Below are positions 9,358 through 52,236 of a DNA stretch of 64,000 bases, in pieces. The DNA is from Acidobacteriota bacterium (GTDB taxonomy: Bacteria; Acidobacteriota; Polarisedimenticolia; Polarisedimenticolales; JAIQFR01). The stretch's first letter is position 1. Each line of letters starts with the position of its first letter. The translations under genes and the position numbers were made by a program. The stretch spans positions 4,030-68,029 of the forward strand of contig JBGQAU010000005.1 of assembly GCA_041494445.1 (NCBI GenBank), written 5' to 3'. The notes beneath the pieces were generated by a model. It saw only the letters and a program-made list of their open reading frames with translations. It did not search any database and had not been told where the DNA came from.

Positions 9358-9453
9358 TCTATGATGGGAGACGCCCGCGGGGGGACGGCGAACCAACGGG
9401 GTGGGAGCGTGCACCGGCGACCGCCTGACCGGCGCCCTCGCCAGGAGAATGCC

Positions 9454-11559: not shown

Positions 11560-11572
11560 GACGAGGAGAGGA

Positions 11573-12751: not shown

Positions 12752-13347
12752 CAGCGGACCACGATCAGGATCTGCCCTGCGCGAACCTCCTCGGAGTCGG
12801 CGCAACGGATCTCTGCGACCACCGCCTCCTCCGGAAACCCCGGGCCGCCGAACGCGATCTGATTGAAGGTCTTCATGACCTCGACGAGGCCCACCGGATC
12901 CCCCGTCCGGACGCGCGCGCCCGGCTCCACGAACGGAGGCGACGCCGGCGAGGGACGGCGGTAGAAGACCCCGTCCGTCGGCGAGAGCACCGCCCACGAC
13001 CCCGGCGCCAGCCCCGCTCCCGCGGGATGACCGGGCCTGTCCGCATCGGCGGACAGTCCCTGGCGCTCCCCGGCGTCCAACGGCGCAAGCTCGAAGAGCA
13101 CCTGCCCGTGCTCGACCGCGAGCGCGCGGTCGCGTGGAAGCCCGACCGCGACCTTCCCGGCCGCCCCTTCGGGGAGGACCAGGGCGAACCGGCGGCTGAG
13201 GTGCGCGAGGAAGCCGATCCGGCTCCCGGGGCCGAGCAGCGCACCCGGGTGGGGATGGTCCGTCCAGATCCCCACGAGGGGAGAGACCACCAGGGCCCGC
13301 CCGTCCTCGCCGCGTTCCGCCCTGGCCACGAGGATCGGCTCGTTCAT
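12751..13347 (-). CDS. Biotin carboxyl carrier-like protein (biotinyl/lipoyl hybrid-barrel domain, with degenerate N-terminal duplicate)
   Basis: C-terminus SPTDGVFYRRPSPASPPFVEPGARVRTGDPVGLVEVMKTFNQI...AGQILIVV carries the E-V-M-K biotinylation motif. Start at ATG 13347 (AAGGGG RBS about 7 nt upstream). The ORF-opening ATG 13398 has no spacing to any SD. Confidence 0.75.
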   Translation of the reverse strand: MNEPILVARAERGEDGRALVVSPLVGIWTDHPHPGALLGPGSRIGFLAHLSRRFALVLPEGAAGKVAVGLPRDRALAVEHGQVLFELAPLDAGERQGLSADADRPGHPAGAGLAPGSWAVLSPTDGVFYRRPSPASPPFVEPGARVRTGDPVGLVEVMKTFNQIAFGGPGFPEEAVVAEIRCADSEEVRAGQILIVVR

Positions 13348-13407
13348 CCCGTCACCCCTTCCGGCCGCATCCTGTCGCGGCTCCGGTAAGTCTAGCATCC
13401 CCGCGAC

Positions 13408-14637
13408 TTAGGCGAGCCGCCTTTCGCCCGCTGCCTCCCCCGAGGCACCCGCGGCAGCCGAAGTGTCCGTCTGAGTGTCCATTTCGCCGAACACCCGGTC
13501 AATCGCGCCCACCGCCCGGCGCAGGTGGCCCGGTTGTAGGGTCGCGTACCGCTGCGTCATGGCCGGGGTGGAGTGTCCGAGGATCTGTTGCAGCTCGTAC
13601 AGGCTCGCCCCGTCCTGAATCGTCCAGCTTGCGAACGTGTGCCGGAGCGTCGCGAAGGAGGCATCCGCGATCCCCGCTTTCCGCATGACTTTCTTCGTGG
13701 ACACCGTGACGACGTGCCGGGCCTTCTCGCTCGCGTAGTCCTCCCCGGTGCCGTCCACGAACACGAACGGGGAACGGACGTGCCGCACCCGGCCGTCCAG
13801 GATCGCTCGAACGGTCGCGTTCATGGGGACGGTACGGGAGCCCGTCTTGCTGTCCTCCGAAACGTGGAGCATCCCGGCGGCCTTGTCCACGTCCCCCCAT
13901 CCCAAGAGCAGGACTTCCTTGAGCCTCAACCCGGTACTGACCGCCATTCGCAGGATCGGCTTGAGCCACGGCGCCGCGGCGGTCTCAAGGGCCGTGTACT
14001 CCGCCTTCGTCAAGTACCGGGTCCGCGGCTTCGCCGGGCTCGGCTTCGGAAGGTCGGCGGCCGGGTTGTTTTCGATCACGCCCCACCGCGCCGCCATCTT
14101 AAACACCCGCCCCGCCGTCCGCAGGGCCTTTACGACGGTGGTGGGGCTGTACGGACGCCCCCGGGCGCAGCGCATCGTGCTCAGGTGGACCCGGAAAGCG
14201 TCCAGGTCCCCCCGGGTAATGTCCCGGATCGCCCGCTCTTGGAAGTAGGCGATCAGCGGGCGCGTGCTCGTGACGTAGTGATTCGAACGCCGCTTGCCGG
14301 GGTGCTCCCGGAGAAACCGCGTCACGAACTCGCCGACGGATGGCCCGCGGTCCGCCTCCGCTTTCCGGCGCGCCTTCTCCTCGCGGAGCTTGCGGTCTCG
14401 CGGGGTCTCGAACGTCCCGGTTCTGACCTCGTGCCGCCGCTGTTCCAGGAGCGCGCGCGCTTCGGTCAAACCGAGCCCGGCGTACTCCCGGATGCGCCGA
14501 TGGTGCTGGTCCCGGAAGTCAATCCGGTAGTACTCGGTGCCGTCTGAGCGTGTCACCTTGAACACGCAGCGGACGGGCCTCCCCCTACTGTCCTTAGCCT
14601 GGACGATACTCGGTTGTCCTCTCGCTTCGCTTGCCAC
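13408..14637 (-). CDS. int: Tyrosine recombinase / phage-type integrase
   Basis: 409 aa, GTG start with GGGAGG RBS. Catalytic signature: ...STGLRLKEVLLLGW (Arg), LRHTFASW (H-x-x-R), ILGHSTPAMTQRYA (His...Tyr). N-terminus VRCVFKVTRSDGTEYYRIDFRD looks like a small beta-sheet arm-binding domain. Confidence 0.9.
   Translation of the reverse strand: MASEARGQPSIVQAKDSRGRPVRCVFKVTRSDGTEYYRIDFRDQHHRRIREYAGLGLTEARALLEQRRHEVRTGTFETPRDRKLREEKARRKAEADRGPSVGEFVTRFLREHPGKRRSNHYVTSTRPLIAYFQERAIRDITRGDLDAFRVHLSTMRCARGRPYSPTTVVKALRTAGRVFKMAARWGVIENNPAADLPKPSPAKPRTRYLTKAEYTALETAAAPWLKPILRMAVSTGLRLKEVLLLGWGDVDKAAGMLHVSEDSKTGSRTVPMNATVRAILDGRVRHVRSPFVFVDGTGEDYASEKARHVVTVSTKKVMRKAGIADASFATLRHTFASWTIQDGASLYELQQILGHSTPAMTQRYATLQPGHLRRAVGAIDRVFGEMDTQTDTSAAAGASGEAAGERRLA
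13463..13482 (-). repeat. Island motif copy 1 (ATGGAC-ACTCAG-ACGGACAC read on minus strand), left terminus, inside int 3' end
   Basis: Plus strand reads gtgtccgtctgagtgtccat. Its reverse complement fits TGGAC-N6-ACGGACAC. A further GTGTCCG lies at 13573-13579. Confidence 0.7.
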
Positions 14638-14640
14638 GGC

Positions 14641-14940
14641 TTACCTCCCGCGCGCACGTCGGCGCGCCTGTTCGGCATTCTCGATTGCATGCTCCCACCG
14701 CTCCCGCAGTTCCCCGGCCGGGCAGAGGTCGCCCCGTTCCAGTCCCTCGACGCAGCTCTCGTGGAGCCCGAGCGCCTCCGCCAGCTCGGGGAGCGTGAGC
14801 CCGGTCCGCTTCCGCCGGCAGACAAGATGCCTTCGCCACGGTTCCATCATCCCCTCCGTGGGGGACGTGGCGACACACTCTCGGGGCTTGTCCGATCTTC
14901 TTGGTTTGGTAGGATTGGCGAAGCCGCTGGGCGTGTCCAC
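14641..14940 (-). CDS. XRE-family helix-turn-helix regulator
   Basis: 99 aa, GTG 14940 with GGAGG 6 nt upstream. RKRTGLTLPELAEALGLHESCVEGLERG is a canonical HTH_3-type helix-turn-helix. Sits 3 nt upstream of int. Confidence 0.65.
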   Translation of the reverse strand: MDTPSGFANPTKPRRSDKPRECVATSPTEGMMEPWRRHLVCRRKRTGLTLPELAEALGLHESCVEGLERGDLCPAGELRERWEHAIENAEQARRRARGR

Positions 14941-15041
14941 TCACGTCCTCCGGTTAGGGGCCGTCCGGCGTTTGCGCGTCGGGCGGTCCCGCTTGTTCGC
15001 CTACCTTCTACGCCCATCGGTGGCACCCGTCAACCCCTACC

Positions 15042-15060
15042 TGGACACGCCCACGGACAC
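15042..15060 (+). repeat. Island motif copy 2 (TGGAC-ACGCCC-ACGGACAC) in the divergent XRE / cargo-gene regulatory region
   Basis: Read directly from the sequence. 15046-15061 (CACGCCCACGGACACC) is an exact 16-nt repeat of 16714-16729. An inverted half-site GCGTGTCCA lies at 14931-14939. Confidence 0.75.
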
Positions 15061-15206
15061 CCTTTCCGGCTTCCCGCAGCCGGGCTCGCCGGTCCGCTCG
15101 ATTTCGCGCCGAGCATCGGCCCCCGGGGCGGATACGGCGCTCCCCTTGCCACCGTTGCCCCTCTGGGCGTACATCTACCGCAGCATTGCCCGAGGAGGGA
15201 TTCACG

Positions 15207-16058
15207 ATGAGAAACGTCCTCTTTCCTTTGCTCGTCCTCGCCGTCTTCTTGCCCGCCGTTGCCAGCGAGCCGGGGCAGCCGATTGATTGCAGCGATTGGG
15301 TGATCGTGAAACCGGGTATTACGTGTCGGGACATCCCGATCCCGACTCCGGCTCCTTGGTACTCTAGGCCGGGCGCAAACCCGGCCGACAACGAGAACTT
15401 CCTTATTGGAATCGTGTCGGTTAGGGGCTTCCCATTGGATTGCGGCTTCGGGCCTATCGAACAGCGGTACGAACTGCGACGCTTTAACGGAGTGAACGAC
15501 GAATTGGTCGCCTATGTGCAGGCGCGGTGTGGTCCCAGCGGATCCGCGGCAGATACACCAAATGTCGAAGGGATCTTCGGCTTTACATATAACAATGGGT
15601 TTCTCTACGTCGTGGGTACAGATGAGTGCTGGGGGGACGGGGTTAGCTGTGCGTACACTGCACAGAGTTGGCTCATTCGCTTCGAGGGTTTCACGACGGA
15701 GCTTGACGTGCTTCAGACGTTTACGTCTCAGGCGCGGCAAGTCGGCTTCCACGTTCCGGTCATGCCCGAGGGTATGGCCGCAGCCGACCATTTCGACACC
15801 TACTGGGGCGACCTCTCCGCGGTCGGCAACTGGTCGCAGGCGCACGGGCTGCAATGCCACTACCCCGACTCCCCTCCCACCCGCGGCGACTACCTGACCG
15901 TGGCCGACACGCTGCCAACCCCACAGCCCGGCCACGGCTACTACTACGTCACCGCCGCGACGTACCAGGGGCAGACGAGGTACGGGAGAAAGACGACGAA
16001 CAGGACGCTGAGCGGGAGGGATCCGGCGCAACTGCCGGCGTGCTCGCCCTTGAGGTAG
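15207..16058 (+). CDS. Secreted Cys-rich protein of unknown function (island cargo)
   Basis: GAGGAGGG RBS before ATG 15207. Signal peptide MRNVLFPLLVLAVFLPAVASEP. 8 Cys in the mature part. Visibly lower GC than its surroundings (15.3-15.7 kb). The only plus-strand gene in the island. No motif recognised. Confidence 0.6.
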   Translation: MRNVLFPLLVLAVFLPAVASEPGQPIDCSDWVIVKPGITCRDIPIPTPAPWYSRPGANPADNENFLIGIVSVRGFPLDCGFGPIEQRYELRRFNGVNDELVAYVQARCGPSGSAADTPNVEGIFGFTYNNGFLYVVGTDECWGDGVSCAYTAQSWLIRFEGFTTELDVLQTFTSQARQVGFHVPVMPEGMAAADHFDTYWGDLSAVGNWSQAHGLQCHYPDSPPTRGDYLTVADTLPTPQPGHGYYYVTAATYQGQTRYGRKTTNRTLSGRDPAQLPACSPLR

Positions 16059-16084
16059 CCTACCCATAGGCCGCTCGGCCGCCG

Positions 16085-16261
16085 TCACCGCTCCCACCTC
16101 TCCTCTTCGGTCATCGACCGCACGAGGTAGCAGCCACACTCGACACAGCACGGCGGTCTGCATCGGTGCTGCCGTACCGGGACGATCAGATATCGCCGCG
16201 TCTTCCCAATGCCCATCTCGATTCGCTGCGGGTGGCAATCCACGAGCCCGCGCACGGCCAT
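16085..16261 (-). CDS. Possible small Cys-rich protein (58 aa), below the ORF-track size cut-off
   Basis: Own translation: MAVRGLVDCHPQRIEMGIGKTRRYLIVPVRQHRCRPPCCVECGCYLVRSMTEEERWER. High GC3. Convergent with the cargo gene (26-nt gap). Its ATG lies only about 14 nt after a terminator-like hairpin, so expression is uncertain. Confidence 0.3.
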   Translation of the reverse strand: MAVRGLVDCHPQRIEMGIGKTRRYLIVPVRQHRCRPPCCVECGCYLVRSMTEEERWER

Positions 16262-16274
16262 GCGTCACCTCGCG

Positions 16275-16318
16275 AAAAAGAACCCGGCCGCCAGTTCCGG
16301 CCCCCTGGCTGGCGGAGA
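16275..16318 (-). terminator. Terminator-like hairpin + U-run closing the long island operon
   Basis: Minus-strand RNA reads CCGCCAG-N14-CUGGCGG (inner alternative GGCCG/CGGCC), then ccggguUCUUUUU. The U-run is 3-8 nt from the stem, so the geometry is imperfect. Confidence 0.35.
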
Positions 16319-16359
16319 CGACCGGGAGGGTATCCGCCCTTCCCCATGCGGACCGTGGC

Positions 16360-16629
16360 CTAATCCTCGATGGCCTCCGCGGCGCCCGACGCGATCAGGT
16401 CGCCCGCGGGATCGGCGAGAGCGCGAACGAGCGGCACGAGCACCGGGTTTTCGATTGCCTCGATGGCCGCGACCGCTGCATCCCGTGCGGTGGCATCGGC
16501 GACCAGGACGTACACCTCGAACGCCGCGCCTCCCGGGACCTCGAAGACCCCATCCGCCTCCGCCCGCCCGGCCCAGCCGTGATCGCGCCCCGTATCGACC
16601 GCTGTCAGGAAGTGCAGTTGCTTCGACAT
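16360..16629 (-). CDS. Hypothetical protein (89 aa), island
   Basis: ATG 16629 preceded by AGGAGAGAG: MSKQLHFLTAVDTGRDHGWAGRAEADGVFEVPGGAAFEVYVLVAD... The upstream 54 codons of the track ORF cover a motif-containing gap and look non-coding. Confidence 0.5.
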   Translation of the reverse strand: MSKQLHFLTAVDTGRDHGWAGRAEADGVFEVPGGAAFEVYVLVADATARDAAVAAIEAIENPVLVPLVRALADPAGDLIASGAAEAIED

Positions 16630-16705
16630 GCTCTCTCCTATGCCCCCGCGAGGCCGGCCGTCAGCGGCCGTGGCAACCACTGGCGCCCGGCCCGCGAGAA
16701 CGAGC

Positions 16706-16728
16706 TGGACGGCCACGCCCACGGACAC
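16706..16728 (+). repeat. Island motif copy 3 (TGGAC-N10-ACGGACAC), upstream of the 89-aa gene
   Basis: ctggacGGCCacgcccacggacacc equals copy 2 with a 4-nt GGCC insertion. 16-nt exact identity with 15046-15061. Confidence 0.75.
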
Positions 16729-16800
16729 CGCGGAGGGTCGCGGGAGCCCGGGCGCGCCGTCCCGATCTGTTTTCACCTTCGCATCCGCCATACCAGCGGA

Positions 16801-17307
16801 TCAGCGCCGCTCGGGCTGCCGCTTCGTCCAGTAGGCGAGCCCCGCTTGGAACCGCGCCTGCGGATCGTCGTCCTCCCGGCCCAGCGCGAGGGGGACGCCG
16901 CGCCTCACCGGCGTCTCCCCCCTGGCCGCCGAGAACCGCGCCGGGTCCTTCGCGCGGATCTGCATGAGCGCGTCGAGGTACGAGACCTCGCCGGAGGCGG
17001 AAAGCCGCATCGCCTCTTCGTGGATCGTCTGCGTTTCGCTTTTCATCGGATGGCCCTCCGCGGGATCGCGGTGGAGGTGGAGCGGGGCGCCGTGGACGCG
17101 CCCGGATTCGGTCGCAGCCCCGAGGGACGCGAGCAGCCGTTCGGCGAAGTCTCCGGGCATGTCGAGCCGCGCGGTCTCGAACAACTCGGGCGAGTCGTCA
17201 ATGACTTTCGTCAGCGCCTCGACGAAGCCCATGCCTTTTTGCTCGTGGGCGTAGATGGCCTGAAACAACGGCCGCGTCCGTTCGGTCGATTCGATGTAGG
17301 GAAGCAT
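16801..17307 (-). CDS. Hypothetical protein (168 aa), island
   Basis: ATG 17307 (MLPYIESTERTRPLFQAIYAHEQKGMGFVEAL...), 2 nt after the upstream gene's stop. No recognisable motif. The longer track ORF extension overlaps the upstream gene. Confidence 0.55.
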   Translation of the reverse strand: MLPYIESTERTRPLFQAIYAHEQKGMGFVEALTKVIDDSPELFETARLDMPGDFAERLLASLGAATESGRVHGAPLHLHRDPAEGHPMKSETQTIHEEAMRLSASGEVSYLDALMQIRAKDPARFSAARGETPVRRGVPLALGREDDDPQARFQAGLAYWTKRQPERR

Positions 17308-17309
17308 GG

Positions 17310-17831
17310 TCAGTACTCCATCAGGCCGCTGGCGACCTCGGAAAACGCGGCCGTGATCGCCGAGGTCGCGTCCCCCGCGATGTTCGGCACGGACATGCCC
17401 GGCGCGGCGTTGGCCGCGGCCGAGAACTCGGCACCGGCCCGGAGGACCTCGGCGACCGCCTCCCGGACGGCCTTCCCGCGGAGAGCGGCCGCGATGGCGC
17501 TGGACAGTCGGCCCCGGGCGTCCCCGTGCTCGCGTTCGAGGCCGGGACTCGCGGCCGCGCCCCAAGCCTCGCGCGCCTTGCTCTCTTCGTCGGCCGCGAC
17601 CTGGTACGCCGCTGCCAAGATGCCCGCGTGCTCCCGGGCGTGGGCGGTCTCGCCGGCCAGGGCGTTCAGTCGCGCCAGCGGCAGGCCGGGGTCGTACCGA
17701 GCGCGCTGCAATTGCTCGTGCTTGTCGTGCGCCTCGCCCGTGGCCGCGAGCAATTCCGCCCGCCTCCGCCCGGCTGCGTCGGCCGTCGCCCGAAGGTCGG
17801 CGACCTTGGTCTCAGAAGCGAAATTCAACAT
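17310..17831 (-). CDS. Hypothetical Ala-rich helical protein (173 aa), island
   Basis: ATG 17831 with GGAG about 9 nt upstream. MLNFASETKVADLRATADAAGRRRAELLAATGEAHDKHEQLQRA..., predicted all-helical by composition. No known motif. Confidence 0.55.
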   Translation of the reverse strand: MLNFASETKVADLRATADAAGRRRAELLAATGEAHDKHEQLQRARYDPGLPLARLNALAGETAHAREHAGILAAAYQVAADEESKAREAWGAAASPGLEREHGDARGRLSSAIAAALRGKAVREAVAEVLRAGAEFSAAANAAPGMSVPNIAGDATSAITAAFSEVASGLMEY

Positions 17832-17846
17832 GGTAGTGATCTCCGA

Positions 17847-17865
17847 TGGACTGCGCGACGGACAC
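17847..17865 (+). repeat. Island motif copy 4 (TGGAC-TGCGCG-ACGGACAC), immediately upstream of the RBS of the 173-aa gene
   Basis: Read directly from gatggactgcgcgacggacaccc, in the 78-nt gap between genes. Confidence 0.75.
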
Positions 17866-17909
17866 CCGCGACCCTCGCGAGCAATTCGGCGCGTGTTTAT
17901 TGACTTTTC

Positions 17910-18155
17910 TCAACATGGCATCGGCTCTTGTGGCGGGTGCGCCTCCGCGGCCTCCACGTCGAGCCCGACTTCCGGCGCCGGGCCGAACGTCCAGCGCAAC
18001 GTGGCGGAGCCCCCACAGGCGGGGCAGGTTCCGTCGTGCCGCGTCCCATCTGGGAACGTCCAGCCAAGCCGGACGCCGTGACAGGTGGAGCACTCGCCGA
18101 GGCGGAAGCGGCGGACGTGATCTTCAAGGCGTTCCAGGCGGCCTCGGATGCTCAT
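17910..18155 (-). CDS. Small Zn-ribbon protein (81 aa), paralogue B
   Basis: MSIRGRLERLEDHVRRFRLGECSTCHGVRLGWTFPDGTRHDGTCPACGG..., i.e. CxxC...CxxC. ATGA overlap with the upstream paralogue. Confidence 0.5.
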   Translation of the reverse strand: MSIRGRLERLEDHVRRFRLGECSTCHGVRLGWTFPDGTRHDGTCPACGGSATLRWTFGPAPEVGLDVEAAEAHPPQEPMPC

Positions 18156-18415
18156 GAGGGAATCCCCCCGGGGATCCTGACGTGCCTCGCTCTCCCGACC
18201 TCGCGCCCGCACCGCGCGCACCGGCCGGCCGCGTCCAGCTCCACGTCGGCCGCCTCGCGCACTGAGTAGGCTTCAGGGAGGCCGGTCGCGGCGACGGGTA
18301 CCGGCGTACCGTCCGAGAGGAGAACGACGAACGGGACGGCGCCGGGCGCCTGACACGGGCAAGCGTTGCCGCCGAGGCGCCGTTCAATCGAGTCAAGGCG
18401 TGATCGGACTCTCAT
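18152..18415 (-). CDS. Small Cys-motif protein (87 aa), paralogue A
   Basis: MRVRSRLDSIERRLGGNACPCQAPG...GRCARCGREV, i.e. CxC...CxxC. Same N-terminal RL-x2-hE-x-(R/H)h heptad as paralogue B. ATGA overlaps on both sides. Confidence 0.5.
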   Translation of the reverse strand: MRVRSRLDSIERRLGGNACPCQAPGAVPFVVLLSDGTPVPVAATGLPEAYSVREAADVELDAAGRCARCGREVGRARHVRIPGGIPS

Positions 18416-18831
18416 CGTTGCTCCCCTTGTGCCAACCGCGCCTCAAGCGCGTCGAGCCGGGTTTCAAGGATCGCCAGCTCGTGAATACGGACCATGCTTT
18501 CCAGAACCGTTCGGCACGCCCCAAGCGCAACGGGCTCGTTCGCGGAGGACACGAGCTGAGTGAGGCGGGCAAGAACAGCGTCCGCGAGCCCGGCGAGCCC
18601 GGCCGCCGTCACCGCGAGGCTTCGACCGCGGACCCGGTTCAACTGCTCCCGGAACGCGGGATCGCGCATCCGGCGCGCGACGGTGCGGGGCGAGACCCCG
18701 GCCGCCACCGCTGCTTCCGCCCACGTGGCCCCGGTCGCGAGCGCCGTCAAGAGCGCCTGTTCGCCGGGGGCTCCGGGTCCTCTACGCGCCACGTGACACC
18801 TCCGGCCCCCCGTGGACGCCTGGACGGACAC
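18412..18831 (-). CDS. HTH DNA-binding protein (139 aa), island; possibly small-terminase-like or regulator
   Basis: GTG 18831. LLTALATGATWAEAAVAAGVSPRTVARRMRDPAFREQL is an HTH, followed by a helical C-terminus ending ILETRLDALEARLAQGEQR. Lies directly downstream of the ori. Confidence 0.55.
   Translation of the reverse strand: MSVQASTGGRRCHVARRGPGAPGEQALLTALATGATWAEAAVAAGVSPRTVARRMRDPAFREQLNRVRGRSLAVTAAGLAGLADAVLARLTQLVSSANEPVALGACRTVLESMVRIHELAILETRLDALEARLAQGEQR
18813..18831 (+). repeat. Island motif copy 5 (TGGAC-GCCTGG-ACGGACAC), overlapping the start codon of the 139-aa HTH gene
   Basis: Read directly from cgtggacgcctggacggacacc. The terminal CAC is the reverse complement of the GTG start. 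Confidence 0.7.
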
Positions 18832-18973
18832 CGGCGCGCCCGGGCTCCTGGCCGGTTCGTGGCGCCGCCGTTTCTCGTGGGGAGCATCGGCCCGTTGAGC
18901 GCATGGGGCGCGGTTGCCACGAGTCCGGGCGGCCCCCCGGAGCCCTAGCGGGGGGGGCCGCCTCGTGGCGGTG

Positions 18974-19108
18974 GAGGTCGTGTGCGGTCGTGCTGCGGTC
19001 GTGCGGTCGTACCGTCGTACAACAACCGCATTTTTCTTTAAGGGGTGCAGCAGTCGTCATTCAGGCTCCCATATCCGCCGTGCAGTCGTTTGCGGTCGTT
19101 GCGGTCGT
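18974..19108 (+). repeat. Iteron cluster with central AT-rich spacer: candidate origin of replication of the island
   Basis: Same-orientation copies of GC(G/A)GTCGT: GAGGTCGT 18974, GCGGTCGT 18984, 18995 and 19003 (the last two tandem), CCGTCGT 19012. AT-rich patch catttttctttaa at about 19029-19041. Then GCAGTCGT 19050 and 19082, GCGGTCGT 19092 and 19101. Abuts and overlaps the 3' end of the helicase gene. Confidence 0.6.
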
Positions 19109-20556
19109 GGGCTCCCGGTGAGGAAGTACCGCATCTGTTTGCCGTCCTTCCGGCGTTCGATCCGACCTCGCTTTCGGAGCGCCCCGAGGGCGCCATCCGC
19201 CGCCCGCTCGGAGTACCCAGAGCGGCCGATGATCTCGCCCCGAAGGAGCCCCGAGCCGGCGGCCTCCTCCAACAAGGCAACGATGGAGTCCTGCACGCGA
19301 TCCGAGGCGCGGTCCACGTTCCCGGCGTACTCCACGCGGACGGGACCGTTATCCTCCGCGTCCGGTTCCAGCCCGGTCAGTTCCAGGAGGAACGGTGCCG
19401 GGAGCGCGGAGTGTCTGGTTTTCGTCGGGATCAGCGCGAGCCGTTCTTGCCGGCGTTCAAGGCCGAAGTGCGCGTCTGCCCTGTTTCGCTTGTCGAGGCT
19501 GCCCCGAAGCGCCTGGTCCGGTGCGTCGAGGTCCGGTTCTCCCGTTACTTTTCGCGTGTGGTCGGTGAGGATGATCCCGCACCCCAGCTCGACGCGGAGC
19601 GGGTCAAGCGCCTGAGTGAACACGGCCGAGATATCTTCGGACGTGTTCTCACGCGCGGTCGTCGCGCGGCGGAAGCTGTCCACGATCAGGAACTCAGTCC
19701 GCCACTCACCGAGGCTCGCGATCAGTCGGCCGAGGCTCTTGGGGTCGTCCAGTTGCAGCCGGCACCGAATGAGCTGGACTCGCCCCGCGAGTTTCTCCGC
19801 GGTGATCTCTTCGCCGAGCGCGAGTCGTTGCAGGCGGCCGTCCGTTTCCCACGGCCGCGATTCGAGGTCGAGGATCGCGACGCGGTAGGGCCGCGTCACC
19901 TCGAAACGGCCCCAGAGCGTTCGACCCGTCGCGAGGCTCAGACTCGCCGAAAGCACGAGCCAGCTTTTTCCGATTCCGCCGGGACCCGTTACCAGAACAA
20001 CGTCACCTTCGGCGATGGCCTCGCGAGCGGCCCACGGGACCGGCGGGGTCGGTCGTGGGAGCACGTCGGCCGCGTCCTCGGCTGGGAGGAGCGCGGCGCC
20101 GGCGCCGAGGCGGATCGCGCCGAGAGCGTCACGCGCGACCCCGAGGAGCGCCGACAGCTCGACGTCGGTTGTCCCGTTCGCCGCGGCCTCCGTGATCTCG
20201 GCGCCGATGCGTACCGCGTCGCGGCGGTGCGCCCGGTCGCGGACGATCCGGGCATACGCTTCCGCGTTCCTGGAATGGGGACACGCGGAGTCGAGGTCGG
20301 CGACATACGCGGGGCCGCCGGCCGCTTCCAGCTCGTGCGTCCGTTCCAGCTCTGAGCAGACGGTGCGGAGGTCGAGCGGGCCGCCGGCGTCTGCTACGGA
20401 CAGGAACGCGCGCCAGATGATGCGGTGTGGCCCGACGTAGAAATGCGAGTCCGAGAGGATCGCGCGGGCCGCATCGAACGCTTCACGCGAGAGCAGCGCG
20501 GCGCCGAGGACAGCGCGCTCAGCGTCGCGATCGTGGGGGAGCGCGCCGGGGATCAT
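19057..20556 (-). CDS. Replicative helicase-like protein: DnaB N-terminal domain + RecA/RepA-type (AAA_25-like) ATPase + C-terminal winged-helix
   Basis: From ATG 20556. LPHDRDAERAVLGAALLSREAF...HRIIWRAFLSVADAGGPLDLRTV...GGPAYVADL parallels the host DnaB N-terminus at 46274. Walker A VVLVTGPGGIGKSWL, Walker B EFLIVDSF. C-terminus LLRGEIIGRSGYSERAADGALGALRKRGRIERR is wHTH-like. The upstream 151 codons of the track ORF overlap other genes. Confidence 0.85.
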   Translation of the reverse strand: MIPGALPHDRDAERAVLGAALLSREAFDAARAILSDSHFYVGPHRIIWRAFLSVADAGGPLDLRTVCSELERTHELEAAGGPAYVADLDSACPHSRNAEAYARIVRDRAHRRDAVRIGAEITEAAANGTTDVELSALLGVARDALGAIRLGAGAALLPAEDAADVLPRPTPPVPWAAREAIAEGDVVLVTGPGGIGKSWLVLSASLSLATGRTLWGRFEVTRPYRVAILDLESRPWETDGRLQRLALGEEITAEKLAGRVQLIRCRLQLDDPKSLGRLIASLGEWRTEFLIVDSFRRATTARENTSEDISAVFTQALDPLRVELGCGIILTDHTRKVTGEPDLDAPDQALRGSLDKRNRADAHFGLERRQERLALIPTKTRHSALPAPFLLELTGLEPDAEDNGPVRVEYAGNVDRASDRVQDSIVALLEEAAGSGLLRGEIIGRSGYSERAADGALGALRKRGRIERRKDGKQMRYFLTGSPRPQRPQTTARRIWEPE

Positions 20557-20774
20557 GCTGCACCGCCGATCCGCTCCGCAGGCCGATGCACGTCCACGGA
20601 AACCCGCGTCCGCCTCGCGTTTCCTCGGCTGCGTTTCGCCGGATGTCCGTCCACGAGCCCGAGACGCAGTTGGGCCGCGCGTTCGGTAAGTCTGAGGATG
20701 CCATCCGTATCGAGCCGATCCGCGGACCGCAGGAGAACCGCGAGCAGCTCCGCGCGGAGCGTCGCGGCGGTCAT
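20553..20774 (-). CDS. Hypothetical protein (73 aa), island
   Basis: ATGA overlaps with both neighbours and co-oriented. No motif. Confidence 0.4.
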   Translation of the reverse strand: MTAATLRAELLAVLLRSADRLDTDGILRLTERAAQLRLGLVDGHPAKRSRGNARRTRVSVDVHRPAERIGGAA

Positions 20775-21061
20775 GGCCGGGCCTCGGCGGCCACCGGGGC
20801 ATCGGCGGGGTGGATGATGTTGAGGTGGTACAGGTACTTGTGCGGGCCGAACGACACGAGCCCCTGTGTCCGCCGGATCTCGCGAAGGGTCCCCCTCGCG
20901 TCCCGGTGCTGAAGTGAAACGACGCGGACGCAGCCGACCCGGCCCACGAGCGGCGCGAGCTGCTCTCGCTTGCGCCTGGTCCGCTCGTTCTCTTCGGCTC
21001 GCGCCTCATCGTGGGTGACGCGCAGTCGCTCTAACCTAGCCTCAAGGTCTCTGAGGTTCAT
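20771..21061 (-). CDS. Hypothetical protein (96 aa), island
   Basis: MNLRDLEARLERLRVTHDEARAEENERTRRKREQ... (coiled-coil N-terminus). ATGA overlaps on both sides. Confidence 0.45.
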   Translation of the reverse strand: MNLRDLEARLERLRVTHDEARAEENERTRRKREQLAPLVGRVGCVRVVSLQHRDARGTLREIRRTQGLVSFGPHKYLYHLNIIHPADAPVAAEARP

Positions 21062-21684
21062 GGCCGCACCTCAACGGCCGGGCGCCGAGGACGCCACGAG
21101 GCAAGCCACCGCAAGGCAGCCTCGCGCGGGATCGCGAGCCGCGGCATTGCCGGGTTGCCGTCCTTGATGACCGAGAGTCGGCCGCGCCGGATCGCGCTGT
21201 AGATCGTCGGGAGCGCGGGCGCGGGTGGCCGGGTTACGGCTTGGAGCTGTTCGGGAGTGAAACTCGGGAAGGGCGGGAGTGGTGGGGGTGGGTCGGAGTC
21301 GCCGGTACTTGGGCCGTCGCGAGTCGTGGACGCACGGGACGCGCCAGCGGTGCACCGGGCTTGCCGATGCGCTCCACGGGGCCGCGCTACGCGCTGGACG
21401 GGCCTCCTGGTGCGGAGCGCCGTCCAGCGGGCGAGGCGGACGGCCCGGGACTCTCTCAGGAGCACGGCCGGAAGAACGATCCGCCGTCGCCGCTCCGGCC
21501 GGGTGAACTCGTAGGACCGCTTCAACCGCTCGACGGTTTCAAGGCTCGCCTTGGCCGCCGCGGTCTCGCCGCGCCGGGCGAATCCTTCGGCACGGGCCTG
21601 GTACCGCTTGATGTCTGTCGCGAGGTCCGAGCGTGTGAGCCGCGACCCGACCCCCACGCCGTGCTGAAAGACGAGGATTGCCAC
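21058..21684 (-). CDS. Excisionase-like (MerR/HTH_17-type) DNA-binding protein with N-terminal extension (208 aa)
   Basis: GTG 21684 with GAGGAGG 6 nt upstream. C-terminus LPTIYSAIRRGRLSVIKDGNPAMPRLAIPREAALRWL resembles Xis/AlpA-type HTH. Pro-rich linker. Confidence 0.55.
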   Translation of the reverse strand: MAILVFQHGVGVGSRLTRSDLATDIKRYQARAEGFARRGETAAAKASLETVERLKRSYEFTRPERRRRIVLPAVLLRESRAVRLARWTALRTRRPVQRVARPRGAHRQARCTAGASRASTTRDGPSTGDSDPPPPLPPFPSFTPEQLQAVTRPPAPALPTIYSAIRRGRLSVIKDGNPAMPRLAIPREAALRWLASWRPRRPAVEVRP

Positions 21685-21696
21685 GGTGGTCCTCCT

Positions 21697-21822
21697 CTAC
21701 TCGCCGAGTGCCGATGCGATCAAGCGCCGCACCAGGCTCGACAAGGAGCGGTCCTCGGCTCGGGCGCGTGCCTCAAGCAGGGCCTTGATTTCGTGCGGGA
21801 CAGTCACGTTGAGCGCGGTCAT
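21697..21822 (-). CDS. Ribbon-helix-helix (CopG/Arc-type) protein, 41 aa
   Basis: ATG 21822 with AAAGGAGG 8 nt upstream: MTALNVTVPHEIKALLEARARAEDRSLSSLVRRLIASALGE (beta-strand, helix, helix). First gene of the island operon. Confidence 0.5.
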   Translation of the reverse strand: MTALNVTVPHEIKALLEARARAEDRSLSSLVRRLIASALGE

Positions 21823-21861
21823 CGAGTCTGCCTCCTTTCGTGAAGGGTTTGTCATGAACGA

Positions 21862-21891
21862 ACAGTAACGCCGACGCGCCGCCATTGTCAA
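21862..21891 (-). promoter_or_regulatory. Candidate promoter of the island operon
   Basis: Minus strand reads TTGACA (21891..21886), 18 nt, TACTGT (21867..21862), about 40 nt upstream of the RHH start. AGTG-N6-CACT dyad just upstream. Hexamers only. Confidence 0.35.
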
Positions 21892-21971
21892 GAGTGATTC
21901 AACACTTTGGCAGCCCGCCGGCTGCACCACTACCACACAGCCACGGGACCCCGCGAGACCGGGCGCCGCGT

Positions 21972-21990
21972 GTGTCCGTTTTCTGTCCGT
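21972..21990 (-). repeat. Island motif copy 6 (CGGAC-AGAAA-ACGGACAC read on minus strand), right terminus
   Basis: Plus strand reads gtgtccgttttctgtccgt. Same orientation as copy 1. N5 spacer instead of N6. Confidence 0.7.
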
Positions 21991-22060: not shown

Positions 22061-22100
22061 TAAACGAAAAGCGCGGCGAGCCGTGAAACCCGCCGCGCTT
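22061..22100 (-). terminator. Rho-independent terminator downstream of the carboxyltransferase gene
   Basis: Minus-strand RNA reads AAGCGCGGCG-ggguuucacggc-CGCCGCGCUU (10-bp perfect stem; arms at 22069-22078 and 22091-22100), followed by UUUCGUUUA. Second hairpin GTTTCGGG/CCCGAAAC at 22023-22053. Confidence 0.6.
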
Positions 22101-22151
22101 CACTGTCAAAGTTATGCTTATCGAGACAATGGGCTCCGCTCGTTCATCTTC

Positions 22152-23876
22152 TCACCCCGCGAGGACCGACAGATCGTGCAACGACCAGATCCGAGGGTTC
22201 TTCACCCGCCGGTAGCCGATCGACTGGTACGCCATGGCGACCGCGGACTCGATCCAGAGCCTAAGCTCCCCGGGGCGGACGATCTCGTCCACGTCCATGC
22301 GGGAGGCGGCGAGCACCGGGTCCATGTCGCGGCTGATGCGCGCCTCGACCGCCTCCATGCCTCTCCGGGTCTCTTCCGCCTCCTCGGGGGTCTTCGCCAC
22401 GATGTTGAAGTGGTCGTCGAGCTTCGCGTTGTAGGCCCCGATCGCCAGCGTCTTCCCCTCCATCACGGCGAGCCGCGTCATCGGGGTCGCGAGCTGGAGC
22501 ACTGGCCGATACGGAAGCCCCGAGAGGGCGTAGTACCCCGCTCCCGACGCCTTCCGCAGGAGCACCGTGAACATCGGCACGGCGTTGGCCGAGTTCGTGT
22601 AGATCAGGCTCGACCCGTAGCCGAGAAGCCCCTCCCGCTCGGCCTCGGGGCCGATGTCGAAGCCGGAGATGTCCTGGAGCCAGATGATCGGGATCCCGTC
22701 GTCGTTCAGCGCGCGGGAGAACTGCGAGACCTTGGCAATCCCCTCCCGATAGAGGATCCCTCCCGGGCGCTTCGCGTCGCGCTTCACGGGATCGTCCGTC
22801 AGGAGCGGATTGTTCGCGATGAACCCGGCATAGAGGCCGCCCACCCTCCCCACGCCGCAGATCATCTCGGGACCCACCCCGGGAAGCACTTCCCAGAACA
22901 GCGAGTGGTCGACGAGCCGCGCCAGGACATGGCGCATCTCGAACCCCATGCGGTGATCGACGGGAAACAGGCCCTCCAGCTCCGATGGCGGATACGCGGG
23001 GGGCGCCGGGTCGGCGCCGTAACGGTAGTACTCCCAGGCGGGACTCGGGAGCTTCGCCACCTCCGCGCGCAGCCGGTCGAGGAGCACCGCGTCGTCGGGA
23101 ACCCGGTGGTCGGCGCAGCGGCTCTGATGGACGTGGACGTCGGGCCCGCCGATGGACAGCGACGTGATCTTCTGCGACTTGCCCCCCTTCACCAGGGCGG
23201 CGCCCGCGATCACCATGTAGGCCTGCTCGGTCATGTAGACCACGTCGCTGATGATCGGCATGTAGCCGCCGCCCGCGATGCAGTCGCCGTGAACCCCGGC
23301 GATCTGGGGCACCCCCGCCGCCGAGAGGAGCGCGTTCATCCGGAAGATCCCGCCGGCGCCGGTGCGGCCGGGGAAGGTCTGCGACTGCTCCGGAAGGAAG
23401 AGCCCCGACGAGTCCACGAGGTAGATCACCGGGAGGCGGAGGCTGAGGGCCGCTTCCTGCGCCCGCTGGATCTTCTCGGGCGTCCGCGGCCACCACGACC
23501 CGGACGCCACCGTGTTGTCGTTGGCGATCACCACCACCCATCGGCCGTGGACGCGGACGAACGCGGTCACCACCCCCGCGCCCGGGGACGTCCTCGCGTC
23601 CTCGCCGAAGGTCCGCCCCCAGTTCACCAGGGTGCCGATGGGAAGCACCGGACTGTCGGAGTCCTTGAGCCGCTCCACCCGCTCCCAGGTCGGCAGCTTC
23701 CCCTTCTCGCGGACCCTGGCCTCGTACTTCGGACCCCAACCGGCCCGCACCGCCGCTCGCTTGCTTTCCAGCGCGCGCCCTTGCTCTTCCGCCGCATCGC
23801 ACTGCGCCCGCCACACGTCGTCTCGGAGGAAACGCTCGTGCGGCTCGCCGATCGGCTCCAGGATCACCTTGGCCAC
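22152..23876 (-). CDS. Acyl-CoA carboxylase carboxyltransferase subunit (fused CT, GcdA/MccB-like)
   Basis: 574 aa from GTG 23876 (G-rich RBS, 11 nt after the accC stop). [16 protein letters not shown]..., [54 protein letters not shown], close in layout to glutaconyl-/methylcrotonyl-CoA CT subunits as I recall them. Confidence 0.9.
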
Positions 23877-37423: not shown

Positions 37424-37498
37424 TGGCTGGGGCGGGAGGATTCGAACCTCCGAATGCGGGTTCCAAAGACCCGTGTCTTACCACTTGACGACGCCCCA
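37424..37498 (-). tRNA. tRNA-Gln (anticodon UUG)
   Basis: Minus strand reads TGGGGCGTCGTCAAGTGGTAAGACACGGGTCTTTGGAACCCGCATTCGGAGGTTCGAATCCTCCCGCCCCAGCCA. Cloverleaf folds by hand. Anticodon loop CTTTGGA. U1-A72 and G73 as in bacterial tRNA-Gln. CCA encoded. Confidence 0.9.
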
Positions 37499-46132: not shown

Positions 46133-46273
46133 CCCACGCCTCCCGGCGCGGGTCGCTCCCGCGCCTCCCGTAAGGACGCAAGAGTAGCATCGTTGGGCCC
46201 GTCGGTCCCCGCCGCGGGGCCGGTGTGCTAACATCCCCCGGCCGTCGTTCGGTCGGCGGCCATTCCACGGACG

Positions 46274-52161: not shown

Positions 52162-52236
52162 AGGCGCGTAGCTCAGGGGGAGAGCGCTACCTTGACACGG
52201 TAGAAGTCCGCGGTTCAAATCCGCGCGCGCCTACCA
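52162..52236 (+). tRNA. tRNA-Val (anticodon GAC)
   Basis: AGGCGCGTAGCTCAGGGGGAGAGCGCTACCTTGACACGGTAGAAGTCCGCGGTTCAAATCCGCGCGCGCCTACCA. Hand-folded cloverleaf: 7-bp acceptor, GCTC/GAGC D stem, CTACC/GGTAG anticodon stem, loop TTGACAC, T loop TTCAAAT. CCA encoded. Confidence 0.9.

Follow-up and report, generated by a model that had tools for sequence, protein, structure and literature searches.

An 8.8-kb block interrupts an acyl-CoA carboxylase operon in the window, the 64-kb stretch of DNA analyzed here, and is an insertion at the junction between the stop of the host carboxyltransferase (CT) gene and the start of the BCCP-like gene. Relatives with a 94% and an 89% identical CT have an empty site with a CT-BCCP gap of 4 nt, so that the insertion is recent on the scale of 89-94% CT identity. 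The block is flanked by att-like direct repeats (family D10 in a repeat search of the window) which are identical at 22/27 positions and spaced 8800 bp apart. As read from the sequence, the BCCP-side repeat consists of a "GGGGTGA" copy and the genuine BCCP start ATGAACGAGC, and the CT-side repeat of the genuine CT stop GGGGTGA and a ATGAACGAGC copy, which opens a 9-codon BCCP' remnant (22118-22147). The BCCP-side repeat was compared with the empty site of relative L023 (7720-7745), and the BLASTN alignment of L023 to the window breaks at 22135.

These repeats replace the limits of 13408-21990 given in an earlier note on this DNA, which had also assigned a terminator near 22061-22100 to the host CT gene. 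This hairpin belongs to the island, where it lies directly 3' of the CT gene and the truncated BCCP' start. Instead of 17 ORFs, 15 credible genes were counted (Table 1). A block fixed and syntenic in all relatives, which the note named as evidence against its proposal, is not what was found, as close relatives are empty at the site.

Table 1 Features of the island (window positions)
Feature	Position	Strand	Evidence
Island, 8,800 bp	Between repeats 13332-13358 and 22132-22158		Bounded by imperfect 27-bp direct repeat
att direct repeat, BCCP side (integrase-proximal)	13332-13358	.	Repeat family D10
Tyrosine integrase, 409 aa, last island gene	13408-14637	-	PF00589 E 2.7e-23; phrog_1 E 1.9e-61
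Possible XRE-type HTH protein, 99 aa, directly upstream of int	14641-14940	-	HTH_31 E 3.4e-4 and HTH_3 E 0.06, both under Pfam cut-offs
Counter-oriented cargo gene, Cys-rich product of 283-290 aa	15186-16058	+	ORF and translation
o58, Cys/His-rich small protein, 58 aa	16085-16261	-	tblastn homologue in L002
Terminator-like hairpin with T-run, between 89-aa gene and o58	16276-16302	-	Terminator scan
Orphan ORF, 89 aa	16360-16629	-	GC3 0.81
o168, orphan, 168 aa, cassette second half	16801-17307	-	Homologues P0158, P0162
o173, Ala-rich orphan, 173 aa, cassette first half	17310-17831	-	BLASTP to L024
Zn-ribbon protein (Zn81), 81 aa from internal ATG, CxxC...CxxC	17910-18155	-	Homologue P0157
Zn-ribbon paralogue (Zn87), 87 aa	18152-18415	-	phmmer E 9e-17 to L027 272-544
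Small-terminase-like protein, 126-139 aa	18412-18831	-	phrog_2538 E 2e-4; AF2 fold; gene slot
GC-rich perfect hairpin just downstream of iterons	18928-18962	-	Sequence; alignment
Replication origin with iterons	18975-19110	-	Exact iteron copies and TRF arrays
Replication initiator/helicase, 499 aa	19057-20556	-	PF00772 1.4e-27; PF13481 8.9e-26; phrog_19 E 2e-30
73-aa ORF, translationally coupled to helicase	20553-20774	-	tblastn to L002
Orphan ORF, 96 aa	20771-21061	-	ORF, ATGA coupling
208-aa ORF	21058-21684	-	C-terminal ~45 aa weakly like AlpA/Xis-type HTH_17
CopG/Arc-type ribbon-helix-helix (RHH) protein, 41 aa	21697-21822	-	RHH_1 23.7 bits (cut-off 20.5); RHH_5 E 1.2e-5
Promoter-like site TTGACA-17 nt-TACTGT, upstream of RHH gene	21863-21891	-	Read from sequence
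Strong intrinsic terminator	22068-22101	-	15-bp stem, T-run; terminator scan
att direct repeat, CT side	22132-22158	.	Repeat family D10

The RHH gene is the first of a long operon. The promoter-like site upstream of it escaped a consensus promoter scan, as only 3/6 positions of its -10 hexamer agree with the consensus. All ORFs are intact and tightly coupled, with a GC3 excess typical of coding DNA, and their coordinates give five ATGA overlaps (o208/o96, o96/o73, o73/helicase, HTH139/Zn87, and Zn87/Zn81). The 208-aa ORF had been read as an Xis-like HTH protein; the ORF stands, and its HTH is at best tentative, with no Pfam match and an hhalign P of 8e-4 (probability 24%) against HTH_17 proteins of relatives. 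In relatives, this position is occupied by a gene of ~185-212 aa and an HTH_17 gene, and no AlpA-type gene was clearly present in the island. The 96-aa ORF had no match in family searches, and the 73-aa ORF matches the 80-aa gene that immediately precedes the helicase gene of L002 (tblastn E 1.3e-9).

The initiator combines a DnaB_N (DnaB N-terminal) domain with a RecA-type ATPase (AAA_25) and ends in a winged-helix-like tail; it also has an MCM5_C match at E 0.03. In the adjoining origin, three iterons in the 3' end of the helicase gene are followed by an inverted iteron pair, which encloses the AT-rich center CCCCTTAAAGAAAAA, and by three to four further iterons. All exact copies of the iteron ACGACCGCA in the window (5/5) fall within 18983-19108, far above chance. 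This layout is common to seven elements (the island and six relatives) while the iteron sequence differs per element, the pattern expected if initiator and origin co-evolve. The sequence of the hairpin downstream of the iterons is kept in the island, L002, and L020 (alignment columns 240-295).

Directly downstream of the origin lies a gene whose product, with an HTH at its N-terminus and two long helices after it, is likely a small-terminase-like protein according to profile, fold, and gene position. PHROG family phrog_2538 ("terminase small subunit") was matched by 46 of 50 family members (best E 5e-10). The AF2 model (pLDDT 94) had as its best PDB matches in Foldseek 2ao9 and the small terminases of PaP3 (6w7t) and NV1 (7joq) at E 0.13-2.2, and the BFVD matches include several "Terminase small subunit" entries. 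The same slot in L002 holds a Terminase_4/phrog_83 gene (E 9e-40). This assignment supersedes the earlier view that no ORF carries a satellite-type motif.

The next four genes are two Zn-ribbon paralogues and the o173/o168 cassette. Zn81 is 72% identical to P0157 of L027, where the gene order (small-terminase-like C-terminus, Zn90, Zn78, helical protein) matches that of the island; Pfam Zn-ribbon matches were below threshold for Zn81, as was zf-dskA_traR (E 0.011) for Zn87. The o173 product, probably all-helical, had no family match in Pfam, PHROGs, PADLOC, or NCBIfam and aligns in register to a 211-aa protein of L024 (BLASTP E 4e-4, 32% over 68 aa) which directly precedes the o168 homologue. 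Within o168, a helical "...AL..I....P..F..A" motif occurs twice, and the o168 homologues P0158 (48%) and P0162 (40%) each lie directly 3' of a 210-211 aa helical protein. Its AF2 model is all-helical (pLDDT 62.6) and gave no match in a fold search.

Toward the integrase end, an identical gene call for the 89-aa ORF was found in Logan contig L001, and only the self-match appeared among the 150 best matches listed. o58, without a match in family searches, is 73% identical (tblastn E 1e-19) to a 70-aa gene in L002 (14489-14701), with 12 synonymous and 14 non-synonymous codon changes. The counter-oriented gene has a GC content of 0.61 versus 0.69 for the island, and its product carries a signal-peptide-like N-terminal hydrophobic stretch and had no match in Pfam, PHROGs, PADLOC, or NCBIfam. 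The integrase, 28-34% identical to those of related elements, has the same orientation as the BCCP-like gene, which follows 60 nt after the integrase end. The gene reading of the earlier note thus largely held: the RHH gene, the five overlaps, the DnaB-N/RecA-type helicase with its iteron origin, the 139-aa HTH protein, the Zn-ribbon pair with the 173- and 168-aa ORFs, the counter-oriented low-GC gene, and the tyrosine integrase were all recovered. The gene next to int is present as described, its XRE-type HTH being tentative, and the terminator-like hairpin was confirmed, with the conserved o58 gene downstream having been overlooked.

Capsid, portal, large terminase, tail, and lysis genes were not detected in the island with Pfam, PHROGs, NCBIfam, or PADLOC, and a search of the window with the relatives' HK97 capsid, portal, large terminase, and tail proteins gave no match. 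The claim that virion and transfer genes are lacking agrees with these searches. Hidden virion or conjugation genes, the other finding that the note had named as evidence against its proposal, did not emerge, and the sole packaging-related gene among the supposed orphans is the small-terminase-like one.

Through 15 homologues of its helicase (44-54% identity), the island can be placed in a family of elements, 7.5-9.4 kb long, from metagenome-assembled genomes of Acidobacteriota. Three of these (L002, L004, and L005; 7.5-9.4 kb) are bounded by perfect tRNA-derived repeats of 42-48 bp. An HK97 capsid gene follows the terminase-like slot in four of the five relatives in which the slot is readable (L002, L005, L022, and the first L021 element), a count which omits L020 and the second L021 element as their contigs end too early. 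None of the capsid-bearing relatives has portal, large terminase, or tail genes. The island differs from most sister elements in having the Zn-ribbon pair and o173/o168 cassette in place of the capsid gene. The helicase is also shared, at 42% identity, with a 28-kb IMG/VR phage contig. This contig encodes a Mu-like portal and weakly matches a Mu-like protease (PF10123, sub-threshold at E 3e-4), and one of its ORFs, of 533 aa, is a homologue of the L024 large-terminase-like protein.

With its own integrase, origin, and small-terminase-like protein and yet no virion genes, the island is most likely a phage satellite that depends on a helper, follows a PICI-like logic, and probably still functions, a capsid-less variant of an undescribed Acidobacteriota family (probability roughly 60%). 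This is strengthened by the small tRNA-integrated relatives, most of which combine a small-terminase-like slot with an HK97 capsid gene and lack portal, large terminase, and tail genes. The satellite or integrative-replicative interpretation of the earlier note is thus supported, and from it we infer helper dependence, excision, and packaging. The island is outside every described satellite family. Its likeness to PICIs is one of logic; pac-type PICIs carry a small terminase. Weighing against a satellite, canonical PICIs have int as the first gene and the island has it last, and function is assignable for only about half of the island genes. None of a helper phage, an excised circle, an attP junction, or a packaged copy was found, including in a search of IMG/VR for attP.

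An unlikely alternative is that the island is an immobilized or decaying remnant of a capsid-bearing satellite or prophage fragment, which lost its capsid module and became fixed, the transcription at its integrase side being co-opted for expressing the downstream BCCP-like gene. The imperfect att repeat, compared with the perfect ones of L002, L004, and L005, could indicate an old, immobilized insertion, but mismatches are also expected where sequence differences between attP and attB lie outside the crossover segment, and the empty sites of close relatives point to a recent event. The capsid gene of most sister elements is missing, but the region replacing it is no deletion scar, as the module is conserved elsewhere: L027 keeps the small-terminase-like, Zn, Zn, helical protein series, and L024 and L025 keep a pair resembling o173/o168. 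All public copies of the island (n = 3) are integrated at one common site, with identities of 100% or of 90% and above, and the island GC content (0.686) is near that of the host (0.70-0.71). Against decay stand the intact ORFs, which have a GC3 of the coding type and are tightly coupled by ATGA overlaps, and the five iterons that remain exact copies.

Rather improbable is a phage-independent integrative replicating element, that is, an integrated mini-plasmid or mobilizable element spreading by conjugative mobilization, vesicles, or transformation. Integrated plasmids and actinomycete AICE-type elements are likewise built around an integrase, a Rep helicase, and an iteron origin, and such islands commonly have AAA_25 helicases. 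The 139-aa protein would then be an HTH regulator, which its HTH and helical hairpin could also be given the weak statistics for the single protein (PHROG E ~2e-4, Foldseek E 0.13), and no match was found in the INPHARED phage collection. However, the PHROG small-terminase family is matched by 46 of 50 homologues of this protein, the helicase family elsewhere has genes for an HK97 capsid and a small terminase as neighbors or, in one case, lies in a phage contig, and the o168 cassette adjoins a large-terminase-like gene in L024. Relaxase, FtsK/TraB, T4CP, and T4SS genes are absent by Pfam, PHROGs, and NCBIfam. An ordinary small prophage or ICE remnant with structural or transfer genes hidden among the orphans is very improbable, for although seven or eight ORFs are without detectable homology and structure-based searches covered two of these, the largest orphan has only 208 aa, structural proteins of relatives are unmatched, 8.8 kb is too small for a tailed-phage virion module or a T4SS, and similar-sized sister elements are complete between perfect att repeats.

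As a satellite, the island would have its long operon repressed by the RHH protein, perhaps also by the XRE protein, until a helper phage lifts the repression. Int would then excise the island, possibly with the 208-aa protein, and the helicase would bind its own iterons via its C-terminal tail and start replication with the primase and polymerase of the host or helper. The small-terminase-like protein may recognize island DNA and recruit the helper large terminase for packaging into helper-made particles; an 8.8-kb satellite genome would require small capsids or concatemer packaging. Candidate roles of the Zn-ribbon pair and o173/o168 cassette are interference with the helper and control of late genes or of capsid size. 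The counter-oriented, putatively secreted protein would be accessory cargo; in relatives its slot holds other counter-oriented or accessory genes, among them a TIR-domain cargo gene in L021, which carries two elements in tandem.

Comparison with an uninterrupted junction in a related contig (L023) identifies the island as the DNA between two direct repeats of 27 bp (22/27 identical) at 13332-13358 and 22132-22158, spaced 8,800 bp apart. The host operon runs biotin carboxylase, carboxyltransferase (CT), BCCP-like gene, AlaX-like gene, and in metagenomic relatives with CT genes 94% and 89% identical the BCCP-like gene begins 4 nt after CT. The L023 junction reads GGGTGA AGGC ATGAACGAGCCGATT, and its BLASTN alignment to the window ends at 22135, within the repeat. 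In host-operon orientation, the CT-side repeat is ...GCG GGGTGA GAAG ATGAACGAGC GGAGCCC... and the BCCP-side repeat is ...GGAA GGGGTGA CGGG ATGAACGAGC CGATCC..., so each copy takes in the CT stop, four spacer nucleotides and the opening codons of the BCCP-like gene. As the four spacer bases are mismatched, attP and attB are not identical, and crossover must lie within GGGGTGA or within ATGAACGAGC. The predicted attP, ...CGGCCGGAAGGGGTGA-NNNN-ATGAACGAGCGGAGCCC..., had no match across its junction in IMG/VR, a result uninformative about activity. The insertion is recent and site-specific, with an integrase and att-like repeats.

The earlier note had seen the insertion correctly but drawn its limits at 13408-21990; the real island is slightly larger and extends to the repeats. 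With these limits the strong terminator at 22068-22101, which had been given to the host CT gene, belongs to the island. Both host ORFs are intact, yet 8.8 kb of DNA with a terminator now parts the BCCP-like gene from the rest of its operon. The integrase gene, which lies upstream on the same strand, stops 60 nt short of the BCCP-like gene. Insertion exactly at the stop/start junction of a metabolic operon, together with an island terminator, raises the matter of how the downstream host gene stays expressed.

Several smaller features were seen around the site. The CT-side att copy opens a 9-codon remnant ORF (MNERSPLSR*, 22118-22147, minus strand) that mimics the BCCP start, and the island terminator follows directly after it. 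The host genes at 9361-13398 encode a fused E1 alpha/beta 2-oxoacid dehydrogenase (732-aa ORF), the AlaX-like editing protein and the BCCP-like protein; the latter two genes abut in relatives, with a 1-nt overlap in the P0033 contig. Among CT homologues, those at 93% and 77-79% identity carry the labels Acidobacteriia/Terriglobia and Candidatus Polarisedimenticolaceae, which places the host in the Acidobacteriota. A tRNA gene as the target in the window is ruled out, the only two (37424-37498 and 52162-52236) being far from the island. An independent assembly (L001, Logan SRR29605729) is 100% identical to the window over 7,522 bp (11641-19162) and ends at 19162, just beyond the iteron array, which may reflect an assembly break from repeats or a coverage change at the origin.

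The genes that had been read from the sequence, with their five ATGA overlap junctions, were recovered by ORF listing, codon-position GC and family searches; a 58-aa Cys-rich ORF had been overlooked.

Genes and sequence features of the island, in window coordinates
Feature	Position	Strand	Evidence or remark
Promoter-like TTGACA-17-TACTGT	21891-21863	-	read from sequence
RHH protein	21697-21822	-	RHH_1 above its cut-off
208-aa ORF (o208), then 96-aa and 73-aa ORFs	after RHH gene	-	
Helicase, 499 aa	19057-20556	-	DnaB N-terminal domain and AAA_25 ATPase
Iteron region	after helicase	-	
HTH protein, 126-139 aa	18412-18831	-	
Two Zn-ribbon paralogues, then 173-, 168- and 89-aa orphans	after HTH protein	-	
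Hairpin with T-run	between 89-aa orphan and 58-aa ORF	-	
Cys-rich ORF, 58 aa (o58)	16085-16261	-	
Cys-rich protein gene	15186-16058	counter-oriented	signal-peptide-like start; GC 0.61 (lower)
Small XRE-type HTH protein	between counter-oriented gene and integrase	-	
Tyrosine integrase	13408-14637	-	phrog_1 E 1.9e-61

As had been proposed, virion and transfer genes are lacking: Pfam, PHROGs and NCBIfam gave no match to capsid, portal, large terminase, tail, lysis, relaxase or FtsK families, and the capsid, large terminase and portal proteins of the relatives have no homologue anywhere in the 64-kb window. Searches of the island orphans and cargo gene against defence families (PADLOC, NCBIfam) gave no match, and no RNA family was found with Rfam. 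Neither Pfam nor an HMM made from the AlpA-like genes of the relatives gave an HTH_17 match in the island; with hhalign, the C-terminus of the 208-aa protein matched HTH_17 weakly.

By sequence comparison, the island belongs to a family of integrative elements of 7.5-9.4 kb in Acidobacteriota, for which we took as criteria a DnaB_N/AAA_25 helicase at 44-54% identity, a conserved origin layout with ACG-NNN-GCA iterons and in some a GC hairpin, a packaging-protein slot next to it, and int at the far end. About 15 helicase homologues fell in this identity range, almost all metagenomic and two in Acidobacteriota MAGs; helicase-profile scans added one further close relative in genome contigs, two in metagenome contigs and one phage contig in IMG/VR. 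The relatives begin with a gene of ~185-212 aa in four cases (316 aa in L002), followed in most by an HTH_17 (AlpA/Xis-type) gene, then the helicase and the origin. Behind the origin stands a gene of 139-209 aa, which is clearly a small terminase in L002, weakly so in L020 and without assignment in the others, then an HK97 major capsid gene (Phage_capsid, 395-478 aa), a gene of 134-148 aa, accessory genes and a tyrosine integrase. No portal, large terminase, protease or tail gene was found in the capsid-type relatives. Most family elements carry phage head or packaging genes, never enough to build a virion alone. Three of them (L002, L005 and L004; 9,366, 7,478 and 9,350 bp) have perfect repeats at their ends (45, 48 and about 42 bp), which derive from tRNA-Gly(CCC), tRNA-Pro(CGG) and tRNA-Lys(UUU), respectively; a portal, large terminase, protease or tail gene is absent from all three.

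Besides the helicase (53% identical), the window shares with L002 the 73-aa gene upstream of it (E 1e-9), a GC hairpin and the 58-aa Cys/His-rich gene, which is 73% identical (L002 14489-14701). The 12 synonymous and 14 non-synonymous codon changes in this small gene fit a protein under selection. It lies after the terminator-like hairpin at the border of the cargo slot and has no family match. A 28-kb IMG/VR contig (L013) encodes a 42%-identical helicase together with a Mu-like portal, a 533-aa homologue of the large-terminase-like protein on contig L024 and, below the cut-off, a weak match to a Mu-like protease (PF10123, E 3e-4). The occurrence of this helicase beside phage genes indicates that the replication module is common to real phages of the same community.

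Two of the family elements lie in tandem in L021 (1-13812). In the first, a CAP12-PCTIR_TIR domain gene and an OMP beta-barrel-like gene lie between the capsid gene and int, which points to a hotspot for accessory or defence cargo in the slot next to int.

In the origin region, the five exact copies of ACGACCGCA that the 64-kb window contains all lie within 18983-19108, where TRF also places its arrays. Three iterons sit inside the last helicase codons, an inverted iteron pair surrounds an AT-rich centre (CCCCTTAAAGAAAAA), and three to four further iterons are followed by a perfect GC-rich hairpin at 18928-18962. The same layout was found in 6/6 helicase relatives aligned, each with its own repeat: ACGAC(C/T)GCA in the window, ACGAG(G/C)GCA in L002, ACG(G/A)GTGCA in L005, ACG(A/T)GCGCA in L004, ACGTTCGCC in L022, ACG(A/G)CGGCA in L020 and AC(G/A)ACTGCA in L021b. 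A kept architecture with element-specific repeats has the look of co-evolving initiator/origin pairs, and the rep-ori module of SaPI-type PICIs is a close parallel to this arrangement. The helicase C-terminus is winged-helix-like (MCM5_C E 0.03) and conserved in the helicase alignment, making it a candidate for iteron recognition. An element-specific central triplet beside a conserved initiator offers a compact, testable case of initiator-origin recognition.

The GC-rich hairpin (GGCGGCCCCC..GGGGGGCCGCC) is conserved in sequence directly after the iterons in the window, in L002 (about 11620-11660) and in L020, although iterons and small-terminase-slot proteins differ among the three; candidate roles are a terminator, a pac-like site or a replication element. 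A second DnaB-type ORF of 461 aa in the window (46232-47614, plus strand) matches the family helicases at E 1e-11 to 1e-42 and is probably the host replicative helicase dnaB.

The 139-aa HTH protein that follows the origin is probably small-terminase-like, on four agreeing lines of evidence, none of them strong alone. By itself, the protein gave weak matches to PHROG small terminases (phrog_2538 E 2e-4, phrog_4044 E 9e-4). An exhaustive HMMER search places it in a large family of 120-140 aa proteins, and 46 of the 50 members tested matched phrog_2538, "terminase small subunit" (best E 5e-10). The AlphaFold model from the family alignment (pLDDT 94) shows a three-helix HTH followed by two long helices; its best matches among solved structures were the phBC6A51 nonamer (2ao9) and the small terminases of PaP3 (6w7t) and NV1 (7joq), at E values of only 0.13-2.2, and several annotated small terminases were among its fold matches in BFVD. 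Finally, the gene in the same post-origin place in L002 is an unambiguous small terminase (Terminase_4; phrog_83 E 9e-40). No match to the protein was found in INPHARED phages (tblastn), its family showed no relation by hhalign to the proteins preceding the large-terminase-like genes in L013 and L024, and as far as tested there is no homology to SaPI TerS.

Tandem-duplicated forms also occur in this family, for example P0161 (292 aa). A concatenated query of the orphans matched 2,440 representative proteins (E<=1e-3); of the 150 listed, nearly all fall on the small-terminase-like protein; the list is saturated by this family, and weak homologues of the other orphans may be hidden.

Among described systems, the island follows the logic of a pac-type PICI (SaPI-type) and falls outside that group on gene order. 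Like PICIs (about 7-18 kb, with an integrase, att repeats and a specific site), it is below 10 kb, carries a site-specific tyrosine integrase and is flanked by direct repeats. An initiator-helicase has its iteron origin immediately 3', with two iteron sets flanking an AT-rich region and element-specific pairs, a likeness in type of function, as no primase domain was detected in the helicase. The island probably also encodes its own small-terminase-like protein (with weak single-protein statistics), is free of structural, tail and lysis genes, models covering only part of the orphans, and has an accessory-gene slot beside int. In contrast to the canonical PICI order of int, regulators, rep-ori and packaging, with int at the left end beside divergent regulators, int comes last here in one long operon (RHH, o208, o96, o73, rep, ori, small-terminase-like, ..., cargo, XRE, int). 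Further differences from PICIs are the DnaB N-terminal domain of the helicase, the presence of RHH and XRE proteins with no clear Stl/Str or AlpA, and the lack of homologues of Ppi, Cpm, Rpp and Pti. Unlike PICIs, the island has an Acidobacteriota host and a protein-gene junction as its site, and any induction by a helper is putative.

The sister elements L002, L005, L021 and L022 resemble cf-PICIs and SaPIbov5-type (Ccm) elements in carrying an HK97-fold major capsid gene and a gene in the small-terminase slot, and with a capsid gene of their own they make at least part of their own head. According to PMC10690885, the full head and packaging set of cf-PICIs comprises capsid protein, protease, portal, connectors, small and large terminase and HNH; compared with that listing, the sisters carry only a capsid gene, one gene of 134-148 aa and a small-terminase-like gene, and the island has no capsid gene and retains the small-terminase-like gene alone of the set.

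A tiny gene set, no recognisable capsid-remodelling genes and reliance on a helper for all virion parts are shared with PICMI and marine VEIMEs, which are packaged as concatemers, and by analogy concatemer packaging of 8.8 kb is plausible for the island. PICMI lies next to fis, lacks terS, replicates with the help of a primase and needs alpA, int and iolg to be excised (PMC10803314), and some VEIMEs carry small terminases (PMC9618062). The island differs from PICMI in its carboxyltransferase/BCCP site, the lack of a primase and the presence of a small-terminase-like gene, and none of these PICMI proteins is homologous to its proteins. Of the P4-like core (Psu, Sid, Delta, alpha primase-helicase, Eps, AlpA), no member has a PHROG or Pfam match in the island, and its Zn-ribbon proteins gave no match to Ogr/Delta. 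The island is not a PLE.

The analysis supports and sharpens the satellite-type interpretation of the earlier note. The reading we favour, as more likely than not, is a phage satellite of PICI-like logic. A bolder one, to which we give a probability of roughly 0.3, is that the island and its relatives make up an Acidobacteriota satellite lineage not described before, in which the backbone is fixed (small coupled gene, rep helicase, triplet-coded iteron origin, far-end int) and a post-origin "hijack slot" is exchangeable. The slot would hold an HK97 capsid, a 134-148 aa protein and a small terminase in some elements, and in the window a small terminase, two Zn-ribbon proteins and the o173/o168 pair, possibly a new way to exploit a helper. 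With an intra-operon site and the island's own terminator, expression of the BCCP-like gene may depend on transcription from the island. On the favoured satellite reading, the RHH and/or XRE protein would repress the island until de-repression by a helper phage, and Int would excise it, perhaps helped by the 208-aa protein with its weakly HTH_17-like C-terminus. Replication would then be directed by the iterons, the helper's large terminase would be redirected to island DNA, and transfer would occur in helper particles, in small capsids or as concatemers.

Most well-documented phage satellites come from Proteobacteria, Firmicutes and, more recently, Actinobacteria, and small satellite families are now regularly reported. 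Acidobacteriota are abundant soil bacteria, and to our knowledge hardly anything is known of the biology of their phages. The word "Acidobacteri" is absent from the main text of the SatelliteFinder survey (PMC10085698), and a full-text literature search returned no pertinent account of a phage satellite in Acidobacteria. What we rate as new is the satellite-like family and, within it, a capsid-less member with its own unexplained module. Concrete and testable points are the phylum, the post-origin module that can be swapped, the triplet-coded iterons and the site within an operon.

One of the strongest alternatives is that this copy of the island is immobilised, as its repeat is imperfect, a capsid gene is lacking and all three public copies (3/3) are integrated and near-identical. 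No helper-type genes were found elsewhere in the window, which is uninformative about activity.

Movement without phages is also among the strongest alternatives. AICEs such as pSAM2 and SLP1 share with the island a high-GC host, the 9-kb scale and the combination of int with a replication gene. AICEs depend on an FtsK-like TraB translocase and on spread genes, neither of which was detected in the island. Pfam, PHROGs and NCBIfam found no FtsK, relaxase or T4CP domain in any of its ORFs, which sets it apart from AICEs and IMEs. The AICE Rep types (RepSA, RepAM, Prim-Pol) also differ from the DnaB_N/AAA_25 helicase of the island.

A broken or diverged capsid gene as the origin of the 173-, 168- and 89-aa ORFs was rejected, as they match neither the relatives' capsid genes (BLASTP, tblastn, phmmer) nor the 459-aa protein of L004 (hhalign), and the 173- and 168-aa ORFs are two distinct neighbouring genes whose pairing is found again elsewhere.

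A 1-kb contig (L027) preserves the island's order of small-terminase-like C-terminus, Zn90, Zn78 (72% identical) and helical protein. Homologues of the 168-aa protein, at 40-48% identity, always follow a helical protein of 210-211 aa, which aligns in register with the 173-aa ORF (BLASTP E 4e-4). The order in L027 and the recurring o173/o168 pair show that the stretch of genes separating the small-terminase-like gene from the 58-aa gene is not debris. The o168 model is of moderate quality (pLDDT 62.6) and had no Foldseek match in the PDB, nor did a profile search of PDB sequences yield a match; IMG/VR contained no relative of o168 and none of the relatives' capsid protein.

In L024, an o173/o168-like pair lies two genes downstream of a large-terminase-like gene with weak Terminase_6N/TerL_ATPase matches and clear Walker motifs, homologous to the L013 gene. 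The island and L024 settings together associate the o173/o168 cassette with packaging genes in at least two contexts. In the family, one replication backbone comes with a swapped post-origin module, be it capsid plus small terminase, small terminase plus a Zn-ribbon/helical cassette, or others, and these swaps are natural experiments on how little a satellite needs to hijack a helper.

The order in L024 (1-4836) is helicase C-terminus, a 186-aa gene, the large-terminase-like 485-aa gene with no portal after it, a 59-aa gene, the 211-aa helical protein, the o168 homologue and a 112-aa fragment with a hydrophobic stretch. This contig may represent another satellite type, one that carries its own large terminase.
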